A DNA stretch of 64,000 bases from Candidatus Heimdallarchaeota archaeon (GCA_019057375.1 DXJF01000112.1:1-64000); one strand, 5' to 3'; counted from the stretch's first letter, positions 48,687 through 54,016 are shown. Numbers and translations are program-made. Notes: generated by a model from the letters alone, not told the origin.

Positions 48687-49094
48687 TTATGCTGTGTGCG
48701 AAAATGTTTTTGATACTTCAGCAAACTCTAATGTAATATCATAACTGGTTCCAACGTTAAATGCTCCAACTATGTAAACCATATCGGTACCTTCTGCGGC
48801 TATCACTACGTAAATCATACTACTTCCTGTTGGCGTGTCAAGAAGTTGTACTCCTGTTAAACCAGTGACAGTTACACTCGTGATATTAAGTGATCCACCT
48901 ACGGCATCCACTTTAACTTCTATAGCTCTGTCTCCACCACCAACATCACTTGACCCTGGTGTGATAATGAGCGTTGCTTCGCTTTTAGGTTGTAACATCG
49001 GAATTACTACTAGAAACACTATAGCTGCTGCTGCTGTAACCAATGCAATCAGCAAAACTGTTGCGATTACTGGAGATACTCCTCGTTTCTTCAT
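48687..49094 (-). CDS. Archaeal type IV pilin-like protein (class III signal peptide)
   Basis: MKKRG|VSPVIATVLLIALVTAAAAIVF prepilin motif followed by a small beta-rich domain. Confidence 0.9.
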   Translation of the reverse strand: MKKRGVSPVIATVLLIALVTAAAAIVFLVVIPMLQPKSEATLIITPGSSDVGGGDRAIEVKVDAVGGSLNITSVTVTGLTGVQLLDTPTGSSMIYVVIAAEGTDMVYIVGAFNVGTSYDITLEFAEVSKTFSHTA

Positions 49095-50674: not shown

Positions 50675-50768
50675 CAGTTCTTACCTTGTAAACTAATTAA
50701 TAAACCTTGAGAACAGATAAAGAATTCAAAAGCAAATTTTTATAATATCCTTTGAATCAATAAACATA

Positions 50769-51959
50769 ATGTCTTCCTCTGATGATAAAACCCTAAAGGA
50801 AAAGATAAGTACATTTGTTAAAAAGTTTATCAGTGATATTGATGCCAAAGAAGTAGCTATTCTCATCATATTTGGTTTGATAATTTTCATGGTTTTCAAA
50901 ATGATGTTGGGAGGAATTTTTGGCTTATCTTTAGTTGTTATAGAAAATCCTTCCCCAACAAGCATGTGGCCTACTTACGATCAAGGTGATATGTTTCTTA
51001 TTTACAAGTGCTCTCCAGAGAAAATTGAGCTTGGTGACGTAATTGTTTATGTTTCAGATACCTCAAGGAATAGAGGAATTCTGATTATTCATCGTGTGGT
51101 TAATATAACTAAAGAAGACAAAGGGAATGGATTAGAGTACTTTTTCAGGGTTAGCGGGGATAATCCTAACTCAAATACTTATGTTGATAGTTACGACGGA
51201 ACAACAACACTTATTCCTTATGAAGCAGTTGTAGGAAAAACAGTGCTTCTAATAAGAAAAATTGGTTATCTTAGATTGTGGCTAGCTGATAACGCTGTTG
51301 TTAGGTATATTCTTCTAGCAGCTGTCATTCTAATAGGTGCCTATCTGATTTTATCTCCTGATAAGAAAAAGGAAGAAAAAGAGGTTGCTTCAGAGAAATT
51401 TGATGAAATGCAAAAGAAAGAGAAGAAAGAATTCAAAGTTAGAATCAAGGAATATTTCGTTACTAAATGGAAGAACACAAAGAAATGGTTTATAGAGTTA
51501 TTTATAGTTAAAAAACAAAGAATAAAACTAATTATCTTCTGTTCAATTATCTTATCATTGGTGATCTTTATACCCGTTATTGACAATTCAATCAGAACTC
51601 AGGGAATAACAACTGGAATTGATGATATTACCATCCTTTCCCCTGATTACTATCCTTTGGAAGATATGGTTTATGTTCCATTTACAATCTATTTCAAACA
51701 TGATGGCTCATGGAATCAAGTACTCAAATGTTTTACAACTGAGGGTATTCAAAATGGAACTGTTTTAGCTACATCAGCTTGGTGGTCACATTACCAAGTT
51801 GAAGGAGATAGAACGTTAGGTGGTTCCTTAGTGTTTGTGGAAAGTGAATTCAACGGTAGTCTTGCTTTGACAATAAAGATAACCTATACAATAAAACATA
51901 GGTTTGGATCTGATCTTGTCGATTTAGAATATGAAGAAACCTTTCCTCCTCCAATCTAA
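50769..51959 (+). CDS. sec11: Signal peptidase I (S26, Sec11-type Ser/His) with additional TM and C-terminal extracellular domain
   Basis: TSMWPTYDQGD (Ser), IIHRVV (His), SGDN; three TM segments. Confidence 0.85.
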   Translation: MSSSDDKTLKEKISTFVKKFISDIDAKEVAILIIFGLIIFMVFKMMLGGIFGLSLVVIENPSPTSMWPTYDQGDMFLIYKCSPEKIELGDVIVYVSDTSRNRGILIIHRVVNITKEDKGNGLEYFFRVSGDNPNSNTYVDSYDGTTTLIPYEAVVGKTVLLIRKIGYLRLWLADNAVVRYILLAAVILIGAYLILSPDKKKEEKEVASEKFDEMQKKEKKEFKVRIKEYFVTKWKNTKKWFIELFIVKKQRIKLIIFCSIILSLVIFIPVIDNSIRTQGITTGIDDITILSPDYYPLEDMVYVPFTIYFKHDGSWNQVLKCFTTEGIQNGTVLATSAWWSHYQVEGDRTLGGSLVFVESEFNGSLALTIKITYTIKHRFGSDLVDLEYEETFPPPI

Positions 51960-51984: not shown

Positions 51985-52872
51985 TCATAGATTCTCTTTT
52001 ATTCGTATTGGTATTTCACTTGAAGTTCTTACTGTAGTAATTCCAGCTTCGCTTAAGATACGCATTTTTTCTTTAGCTGTTCCTGATTTTCCATGAACTA
52101 TAGCACCAGCATGCCCCATCTGTTTACCTGGGGGAGCAGTCTGCCCAGCTATAAATGCATATACAGGTTTGGTTATCTCCTTTTTGACTAAATCTGCTGC
52201 TTGTTGTTCTCCTGTTCCTCCTATTTCCCCAACAAGTATGATCTGATTGGTTTGAGGATCGTTTTCAAACAATGTCAAACATTCATTAAAACCAATACCT
52301 TTTATTGGATCTCCACCTAAACCTACACAAGTTGATTGACCAAAACCATTAACGGTTAAATTTTGTATAATCTCGTATGTGAGAGTACCACTCCTGCTCA
52401 CAATACCAACATTTCCTTTAGTGCAGATTTTTCCAGGGATGATACCAATTTTGCTTGCTTCTGGGGTAATTAATCCTGGGCAATTTGGTCCTACCATTAC
52501 TACATCATTATCTAGCGCCTTTTGCCTTATTCTTGCTGAATCTTGAACGGGAACTCCTTCAGTTATAACTGTAAGTAGATTTATTCCAGCATCTATTGCT
52601 TCCATTGCAGCAGAATAAGTAAATCTTGCAGGAATGAAAATTACAGAAGCAGTTGCCTGTGTTGCTTCAACAGCTTCTTTCATACTGTCAAAAACTGGCA
52701 CACCTAAATGCTCTTGCCCTCCTTTACCTGGAGTAACACCTGCTACAACTTTGGTACCATAACCAATCATGGATTTTGCATGGAATGTTCCTTGTTTTCC
52801 AGTAATCCCTTGCACAATAACCTTAGTATTTTCATCTAACAGAATTGCCATTTTAATTTCCTCCTTTAACAA
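51985..52872 (-). CDS. sucD: Succinyl-CoA synthetase alpha subunit (true start probably ATG at 52851)
   Basis: VIVQGITGKQG, GPNCPG, SRSGTLTYE, GLGGD, MGHAGA. Confidence 0.96.
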   Translation of the reverse strand: MLKEEIKMAILLDENTKVIVQGITGKQGTFHAKSMIGYGTKVVAGVTPGKGGQEHLGVPVFDSMKEAVEATQATASVIFIPARFTYSAAMEAIDAGINLLTVITEGVPVQDSARIRQKALDNDVVMVGPNCPGLITPEASKIGIIPGKICTKGNVGIVSRSGTLTYEIIQNLTVNGFGQSTCVGLGGDPIKGIGFNECLTLFENDPQTNQIILVGEIGGTGEQQAADLVKKEITKPVYAFIAGQTAPPGKQMGHAGAIVHGKSGTAKEKMRILSEAGITTVRTSSEIPIRIKENL

Positions 52873-54016
52873 GCTCTATAATTTTTCTTGCAGCGGGTTC
52901 CATCTCACCATATGCTTTTATTCCATTTTCCTCCAAAATACTAATACCTTCTTTATCATTGGTTCCAACTAATCTAATTACTATTGGAACTTCTATCTCA
53001 AATTTCTTTGAAGCATTAATGATTCCTTGAGCTACATCATCACATCTAGTGATTCCTGCAAAGAAGTTTACGAAAATCCCCTTGATATTTTGCCTTGAAA
53101 GAATTTCTAAAGATTTCTCAATTTTTGTTTCATCAGCTCCTCCTCCTACATCTAGGAAATTAGCAGGAGAACTACCAAAGAATTCTAGCAAATCACAGGT
53201 TGCCATTGAAAGACCTGCACCTCCAGCGATAATCCCAATCTCTCCATCAAGTTGAACATAGCTTATACCTGCTTGATCTGCTTCAAACTCTAACTCTGTG
53301 TGTCTATCTCTTTGAGATTTTAAAGATGCAATATTTGCTTGTCTAAAATCTGAATTGCCATCTATTACCACTTTAGAATCTGCTGCAATTATTTTCCTAT
53401 CAGGTGTCAATATTAATGGGTTGATCTCAACCAGAGTAAGGTCTCTTTGCTTAGCCATGTTGACCATGTTTGTCATTATGTTGGTAAAAGAAGTTAGTGT
53501 TTTTGCTTCAAAACCAAGGTTCTTACCTAGATCTATGAACATATATGAAAAAGGATCATCCCAAATCGAAAGATATTCCTTGAAAATATCATCTGGATAG
53601 TGTTCGGCAACTTCTTCAATATCTACTCCTCCACGAGAACTAGCGATAATTAGATACTTTCCAGATTCGTTGTCCAACATAACAGCAAGATAATATTCTT
53701 TTTCGATTTCCAAAGGCTCCTCCAACATAACTATTTCAACAGGTTTACCTCTGTGGTCTCTGCCTAAGATACTCTGAATGTATTCCTCAGCTTCAGCACT
53801 AGAGACTTTTTTTATCAATCCCGCTTTGCCTCTTCCCCCTGAAAGAGCTTGTGCTTTAGCCATCATTACATCACTACCAATTTCCTCAACAAACTGACTA
53901 ATACTGCTGGAATCAGTATATGCTCTGAATCGAGGAACTGGTATTTTGTTTTCTTTAAAAAGTTGTTTTCCTTCAATTTCATAAAGCATTGGCATATTGT
54001 TGAAAACTGGCATCAA
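52853..54016 (-). CDS. sucC: Succinyl-CoA synthetase beta subunit
   Basis: LYEIEGKQLF, KAQALSGGRGKAG, EINPL, GGAGLSM, PANFLDVGGG, GITRCD. Confidence 0.96.
   Translation of the reverse strand: MMPVFNNMPMLYEIEGKQLFKENKIPVPRFRAYTDSSSISQFVEEIGSDVMMAKAQALSGGRGKAGLIKKVSSAEAEEYIQSILGRDHRGKPVEIVMLEEPLEIEKEYYLAVMLDNESGKYLIIASSRGGVDIEEVAEHYPDDIFKEYLSIWDDPFSYMFIDLGKNLGFEAKTLTSFTNIMTNMVNMAKQRDLTLVEINPLILTPDRKIIAADSKVVIDGNSDFRQANIASLKSQRDRHTELEFEADQAGISYVQLDGEIGIIAGGAGLSMATCDLLEFFGSSPANFLDVGGGADETKIEKSLEILSRQNIKGIFVNFFAGITRCDDVAQGIINASKKFEIEVPIVIRLVGTNDKEGISILEENGIKAYGEMEPAARKIIELVKGGN

Follow-up and report, generated by a model that had tools for sequence, protein, structure and literature searches.

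The subject of this text is a gene at 50769..51959 (+) of a 64,000-nucleotide stretch of DNA from Candidatus Heimdallarchaeota archaeon (GCA_019057375.1, DXJF01000112.1:1-64000), the whole of which is called the window in what follows. The gene is an open reading frame (ORF) of 396 amino acids, free of internal stops according to both the ORF list and the translation, and it is the sole plus-strand gene at its locus, flanked on both sides by minus-strand genes. Its start (MSSSD...) is kept in the homologues. An earlier note on this DNA had described the product as a Sec11 signal peptidase possibly fused to a domain resembling SPC22/23 (SPCS3 in humans, Spc3 in yeast), a subunit that is essential to the eukaryotic signal peptidase complex (SPC) without being catalytic. 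The two halves of that description fared differently, in the sense that the fused architecture is borne out and recurs in other genomes, and the resemblance to SPC22/23 is best taken as a probable likeness in way of working and not as a demonstrable family relationship. The parts of the gene, where TM stands for transmembrane and Ig for immunoglobulin, are the following:

50769..51959 (+), whole gene: Sec11-type signal peptidase I with a C-terminal module made of a third TM helix (TM3) and a beta-sandwich; stop codon at 51957-51959
50769..50849 (+), Lys-rich N-terminal tail, residues 1-27 (translation), presumably cytosolic by the positive-inside rule
50850..50918 (+), TM1, the Sec11 N-terminal membrane anchor, about residues 28-50 (hydropathy peak 2.8; AlphaFold2 helix 26-47)
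50931..51278 (+), Sec11 catalytic domain, extracellular, residues 55-170 (TIGR02228; alignment to human SEC11C/A)
50961-50963 and 51090-51092 (+), codons of Ser65 and His108
51294..51353 (+), TM2, about residues 176-195, leading the chain back into the cytoplasm (hydropathy; model helix 176-195)
51354..51518 (+), K/E-rich cytosolic linker, residues 196-250 (composition; predicted local distance difference test, pLDDT, below 50 in the model, i.e., low-confidence or disordered)
51519..51587 (+), TM3, residues 251-273, a type II anchor (hydropathy peak 2.8; helix 2-25 of the domain model)
51606..51956 (+), Ig-like beta-sandwich, extracellular, residues 280-396, with 7-8 strands
50726-50965 and 51341-51586, two short antisense ORFs within the gene (mechanical calls)

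Hydropathy, composition and the model of the C-terminal domain agree with the layout claimed at the outset, i.e., a Sec11 unit followed by a charged linker (17 Lys and 9 Glu among its 55 residues), a third membrane helix and a beta-rich exterior domain, and the start of TM3, proposed at about 51522, is placed by hydropathy at nucleotide 51519. The location of the N-terminal anchor and the catalytic domain outside the cytoplasm is a prediction that fits both the hydropathy profile and the Lys-rich N-terminus. TM3 and the sandwich have a type II topology, with the sandwich and the catalytic domain both on the outer face of the membrane, which is the arrangement for which the protein had been likened to SEC11 plus SPC22/23.

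Catalytic half and C-terminal sandwich

Judged by its residues, the N-terminal half is a Sec11-family signal peptidase with an intact catalytic machinery. This part matches TIGR02228, the NCBIfam model of archaeal signal peptidase I, with 56.2 bits (cut-off 51.85), and a 13-sequence profile of the family matches human SEC11C (E 4.5e-9) and SEC11A (E 2.9e-8). Ser65 (within SMWP) and His108 (within IHRV) occupy the catalytic Ser and His positions of both human proteins, and Ser65, His108-Arg109 and Gly130-Asp131-Asn132, the last of which constitutes box E, are invariant in a 23-sequence class-wide alignment. N136 is conserved and D140 nearly invariant in the family, the conserved Asp residues being candidates for the counterpart of human Asp122/134, among which alignment alone does not single one out. 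In common with Sec11 enzymes (MEROPS S26B; TIGR02228; human SEC11A/C, PDB 7P2P/7P2Q), the first 195 residues hold a TM anchor and a catalytic domain outside the cell, whose boxes B and D supply Ser and His, respectively (bacterial enzymes have Lys in the latter), and whose box E reads GDN; the TM helix with which archaeal enzymes typically end is present as well. Unlike the usual Sec11, the protein is double the length, with an extra cytosolic linker, a third TM helix and an ectodomain of ~117 residues of a kind hitherto undescribed in Sec11, and the catalytic domains of fused forms score 56-85 bits against TIGR02228, compared with 90-124 bits for the short Asgard Sec11. A six-frame search of the 3.47-Mb genome (89% complete) with this model returned one match (59.1 bits), which is this same gene, and no second Sec11. 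As the sole Sec11 of a genome that is 89% complete, the gene must encode the working signal peptidase.

The C-terminal domain, when folded alone from a 17-row alignment, is predicted with a pLDDT of 86 and a predicted template-modelling score of 0.73 as a TM helix followed by 7-8 strands, and the model is, with confidence, a generic Ig-like beta-sandwich. Its best structural matches are TMEM106B/LEA-2-like proteins (PDB 8B7D, 1XO8 and 3BUT) and GH2 Ig-like domains. The luminal domain of LEA-2/TMEM106B (PF03168) is structurally the closest, sharing the seven-stranded Ig-like sandwich, and in TMEM106B and the archaeal LEA-2 proteins the sandwich often stands behind a type II TM helix, as it does in the archaeal Sec11 module; proteins combining a type II TM helix with LEA-2 have been described as a common archaeal module. 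The LEA-2 capping helix, however, is absent from the predicted model, where DSSP shows no helix between the later strands but only a 3-residue turn (model residues 46-48), and the Pfam LEA_2 profile found no match in 23 members of the family (E<=10) or in the genome (E<=1). The neighbours of the domain in the ESM Atlas, by shape and by features, comprise GH2 domains, LEA_2 clusters and free-standing archaeal proteins of 150-170 residues made of a TM helix and a sandwich. The nearest are 'hypothetical proteins' of 152-173 residues from Bathyarchaeota, Nitrososphaerota and Thermoproteota, conceivable candidates for separate Sec11 partners where an archaeon has the short Sec11. No SPC22 cluster was seen among these neighbours, whose feature scores (0.82-0.83) amount to a lead only. 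The fold alone cannot separate kinship with SPC22/23 from kinship with LEA-2-like proteins.

Regarding TM3 itself, its motif R-I-K-L-I-I...IPVID is conserved across the family. The region 51519-51620 has, in addition, the n-h-c layout of a signal peptide (basic, hydrophobic and polar segments), with equivalents at the loci L026, L027 and L032, and in a related family, named f7, TM3 is followed by ...LAAD or LAAN. Release of the sandwich by self-cleavage at TM3 is conceivable from such features, but the hydrophobic core of ~20 residues speaks rather for TM3 as a stable anchor.

Distribution of the long form

Is this architecture a peculiarity of one genome? With the C-terminal 157 residues as query, word-indexed and exhaustive searches returned a narrow family of ~17 relatives, one of them from Heimdallarchaeota AB_125; most are ~360-520 residues long and have the same layout, and the shorter ones miss part of the N-terminus. 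An exhaustive phmmer search with the C-terminal domain over 1.84 billion representatives yielded 7 real relatives, all of them fused; two other matches (P0021 and P0022) were repeat-protein false hits. A profile of the close family matches 43 of the 83 genomes of the class, and across the class the matches to TIGR02228 lie nearly always within open frames of 354-450 residues. When representatives of every family were compared, families f2, f3, f4, f5 and f7 were found to share the plan of f1, to which the gene of the window belongs: TM1, catalytic domain, TM2, linker, TM3 and a C-terminal domain of 130-140 residues. These C-terminal domains can be aligned across families at low identity (alignment A3, 29% mean column identity), with G313, W338 and G346 nearly invariant. 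Within the close family, the mean column identity is 61% for the C-terminal domain and 62% for the whole protein, and the domain is stop-free in more than 40 genomes.

Searched with a profile made from alignment A3, 42 of the 161 Asgard genomes turn out to have a single copy each, and this copy, contig-cut matches aside, lies within a long Sec11 frame of 311-567 residues. Positive genomes occur in every sampled family of the class and, outside it, in f9, f16, f21 and f23. According to the source names, the f5 type corresponds to Hodarchaeales, the f7 type to Heimdallarchaeota/Gerdarchaeota and the f9 type to Wukongarchaeota, and the lineage of the window is near Heimdall AB_125. The domain was not found in the families with an ordinary Sec11 of ~175-260 residues (0 of 35, 0 of 33 and 0 of 14 genomes, and others), and the Loki-, Thor- and Odin-type genomes have a short Sec11 of ~200 residues. 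No free-standing copy of the A3 domain was found in the 161 Asgard genomes, the A3 search of 5.8 billion proteins for a free-standing, SPCS3-sized relative returned only fragments of fused genes on short contigs, and no C-domain-like gene adjoins the short Sec11 at the f8, f11, f14, f17, f18, f20, f22 and f26 loci. The long form is limited to Heimdallarchaeia, Hodarchaeales among them, and to Wukongarchaeia-type lineages, where it is single-copy and always fused; with the fused architecture found again in more than 70 genomes, the survey of Asgard Sec11 architectures shows the fusion to be real, conserved and recurrent. No report of an SPC22/23-like module or of a long Sec11 in Asgard archaea was found in the literature, the coverage of which was incomplete, so that novelty is unproven.

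Several members and lookalikes deserve separate mention. The record of AB_125 (P0005, HeimAB125_07490) annotates only the C-terminal 239 residues, as a separate hypothetical protein that begins at the end of the catalytic domain, probably on account of a mis-called start or a break in the assembly there; this annotation may have hidden the fusion from earlier surveys. A divergent fused member of 524 residues (P0018) carries an extra N-terminal cytosolic extension of ~115 residues (residues 1-115) with no Pfam match. In a 489-residue member (P0014), the linker holds a RING-H2 finger at residues ~230-280 (zf-RING_2, 36.5 bits, cut-off 27.3) with more Cys pairs ahead of it, and the insertion of such a finger at this point is consistent with the cytosolic location of the linker. 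Going by its sequence, P0014 would be a signal peptidase whose cytosolic loop bears a domain of the ubiquitin-ligase type. The linker is variable in the family, and the inserted finger hints at a loop able to carry regulatory modules. A 365-residue protein of family f10 (L034:21-1115, +) is a long form of a different kind, its Sec11 domain being C-terminal, behind a ~200-residue N-terminal extension; the members of that cluster are named Candidatus Asgardarchaeum sp. and Candidatus Odinarchaeota, and the extension has no Pfam match.

Predicted docking and comparison with SPC22/23

The relationship between the two ectodomains was addressed by predicting the complex of residues 22-199 (alignment A4) with residues 247-396 (alignment A3), using matched 23-row alignments. 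The docking score was 0.70 (0.76, 0.66 and 0.70 in the individual runs), and the highest-scoring of the 3 controls had 0.01; the threshold applied is passed by 58 of 80 solved complexes and by 2 of 110 mismatched pairs, rates that are rough for this case, as own alignments were supplied. The runs share at least 91% of their contacts, and the pLDDT of the partners is at least 81. Confident contacts are exclusively ectodomain-ectodomain, with none between TM helices. On the catalytic side they involve P68-Y70, E87-G89, R109, V111-N112, R127, S129-P133, N136-V139 and T146-L148, and on the sandwich side one face (alternate residues) of the 290-307 strands together with the hairpin T335-Y342 / R348-V355. 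In the contacts with the lowest error, the near-invariant W338 meets G89, R109 and D131, all three invariant. According to the literature, a salt bridge between the corresponding Arg and Asp of human SEC11 stabilises the fold. Contact with the catalytic domain, on which the earlier note had made its proposal depend, is predicted, and docking of TM3 plus sandwich on the catalytic domain is supported at the level of models.

This arrangement recalls that of SPC22/23 (PF04573), which is likewise built of one type II TM helix and, after it, an all-beta sandwich outside the cytosol and which, in the human complex, packs on the Sec11 catalytic domain, as is predicted for the archaeal module. In published descriptions, SPC22/23 is needed for activity and wraps around the SEC11 core with an extended, ASF1-like sandwich. 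There are also differences between the two. SPC22/23 is a separate subunit, whereas the archaeal module, which is shorter, shares one chain with Sec11 throughout the genomes examined; and SPC22/23 has SPC12 and SPC25 as partners in a heterotetramer, neither of which is detectable alongside the archaeal module (SPC25 gave no match, and SPC12 gave only noise-level matches, like those in control genomes).

Above all, no sequence or profile similarity links the two. Pfam SPC22 (PF04573) had no match at E<=10 in the 396-residue protein and 22 diverse relatives, nor, for this protein, in a Pfam search with its C-terminal part, nor in a six-frame search of the genome, which largely takes away the profile support expected for the proposed kinship. 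No SPCS3 chain was found among PDB sequences at E<=10 with the family profiles A2 and A3, profile A1 being negative as well; the NCBIfam search gave nothing linking the protein to SPC22/23; and no PF04573-bearing relative was found among the 5.8 billion proteins or the 1.84 billion representatives. The motifs DMVYVPFTI, WNQ, LALTI and FP, from which the likeness to SPCS3 had been read by eye, are all found in the translation, but the likeness itself is without statistical support, since the profile searches are negative and the structural match to SPCS3 is weak. SPCS3 does appear among the Foldseek matches, at rank 15 (7p2p_B, which we take to be human SPCS3 from its 179-residue length; E 5e-3, probability 0.98). 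The match is weak and generic: it stands behind the TMEM106B/LEA-2-like and GH2 Ig-like domains and among hundreds of generic Ig-like matches, with TM-scores of 0.33/0.29 and a root-mean-square deviation of 9.7 over 166 columns, compared with a TM-score of 0.55 for unrelated Ig-like domains. SPCS3 was outside the best 50 VIA rows (wide search and a second look at the Foldseek top 1000), which is not evidence of different folds.

A probable single-chain signal peptidase and rival readings

How, then, should the fused module be understood? The reading we lean towards, holding it somewhat probable, is that of a single-chain signal peptidase with an SPC22/23-like accessory module in cis, in the sense of an analogy and not of family membership. 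The chain would run from TM1 through the extracellular catalytic domain, TM2 and the charged cytosolic linker to TM3 and the outer Ig-like sandwich, which most likely folds back on the catalytic domain of the same chain, beside the box D/E active-site region. As an accessory subunit built into the chain, the sandwich would stabilise the catalytic domain and position it, with its active site, at the membrane surface, a role in cis that would parallel the one played in trans by SPC22/23 (SPCS3/Spc3) as a separate protein. Docking in the cell, and a need for it in activity or stability, we infer from the models. Several points weigh against this reading. The evidence for docking is the model's own confidence, and the full-length AlphaFold2 model is weak except for the C-terminal domain (mean pLDDT 59), so that the cis arrangement is not seen in a confident single-chain model. 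The docking result could partly be memory, because a like complex (human SEC11-SPCS3, 7P2P) has been solved, although the undetectable sequence similarity to SPCS3 makes this less likely, if still possible. In a permutation test against the rest of each ectodomain, conservation at the interface was 0.64 vs 0.56 (p~0.07) and 0.47 vs 0.43 (p~0.13), a weak trend that gives no confirmation. Finally, the sandwich is not generally required, as Sec11 does without it in most archaea and in the majority of Asgard lineages.

Among the alternatives, an artefact (read-through, a chimeric assembly or two genes wrongly merged) would be in keeping with the separate annotation of the last 239 residues in AB_125 (P0005), yet the frame of 350-420 residues runs without interruption through 10 families or more, in dozens of assemblies made independently, some of them closed genomes, and NCBI records list full-length proteins of 359-409 residues labelled simply 'signal peptidase I'. 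Conservation of the long frame across assemblies effectively refutes this explanation, and the chance left to it is negligible. A recruited archaeal ectodomain, made of a type II TM helix and a LEA-2-like or Ig-like sandwich with a role other than clamping the catalytic domain, is a possibility we consider rather unlikely; it might bind lipids or the cell envelope, capture substrates, or tether the enzyme to the S-layer or another protein. The structural neighbours described above suit such an origin, but the domain is single-copy and never occurs outside Sec11, which suggests a role dedicated to Sec11, the LEA_2 Pfam profile is unmatched in any of the 23 members and in the genome, and the controlled docking signal would be unexpected for an independent domain.

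More doubtful still is that TM3 and the sandwich are homologous to SPC22/23, as in a Rosetta stone, with SEC11 and SPCS3 arising by fission of the long form or the long form by fusion of two ancestral partners. That the module is the archaeal ancestor or sister of SPC22/23, and that the SEC11 and SPC22/23 core was once one polypeptide that was later split, we regard as equally improbable. The type II topology, the similar size (146 residues with the TM helix vs 179-180 for SPCS3), the predicted partnership with the Sec11 catalytic domain and the presence of 7p2p_B among the Foldseek matches speak for homology, and so does the occurrence of the fusion solely in Heimdallarchaeia (with Hodarchaeales) and Wukongarchaeia-type lineages, a neighbourhood within which one phylogenomic study puts the eukaryotes (PMC10307638). 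Set against them are the absence of Pfam SPC22 from the 23 members and the genome and of SPCS3 among PDB sequences, the lack of any PF04573-bearing or free-standing relative in either of the large protein collections, a structural likeness to SPCS3 below that to many unrelated Ig-like domains, and the missing SPC22 cluster and SPC12/SPC25 homologues. The Sec11 gene tree (50 rows, 177 columns and two eukaryotic SEC11, with the Fagaceae sequence trimmed to residues 1-164 on account of an internal duplication in its record) points both ways. Its backbone is unresolved, and 25 of the 29 fused forms group weakly (87/74) with f7 outside the group. The eukaryotes lie on a long branch with no supported partner and with a path length nearest to the short forms, which argues against homology. 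By approximately unbiased (AU) tests, monophyly is not rejected for the fused forms alone (p 0.288) or for the fused forms together with eukaryotic SEC11 (p 0.167), and the latter leaves room for homology.

The neighbouring genes may be mentioned on their own account. Immediately downstream, at 51985-54016 (-), lie two overlapping ORFs of 295 and 387 residues whose translations resemble, by eye, the two subunits (alpha and beta) of succinyl-CoA ligase (sucD/sucC). At 48687-49094 (-) there is an ORF of 135 residues beginning MKKRGVSPVIATVLLIALV..., a start that by eye resembles the class III (type IV pilin-like) signal peptides of archaea; going by that start, its product would be a substrate of the prepilin peptidase and not of Sec11.

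To return to the accessory module in cis, the 396-residue protein is a member of the Sec11 family that is SPC22/23-like in its presumed way of working and not demonstrably a member of SPC22/23. The sandwich-bearing Sec11 could be an independent archaeal answer to the problem that SPC22/23 solves, or else a precursor of SPC22/23. What makes it worth attention is its restriction to Heimdallarchaeia/Wukongarchaeia-type lineages, together with a docking predicted just where an accessory subunit would sit. If the homology with SPC22/23 were true, the core of the SPC would be older than eukaryotes, having existed as one chain in Heimdall/Wukong-type ancestors of eukaryotes and later as two genes. 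In either case, the origin of the SPC, a matter of interest for eukaryogenesis, becomes testable with one small, expressible protein, which may serve as a natural single-chain model for the support that an accessory sandwich lends to Sec11 catalysis.
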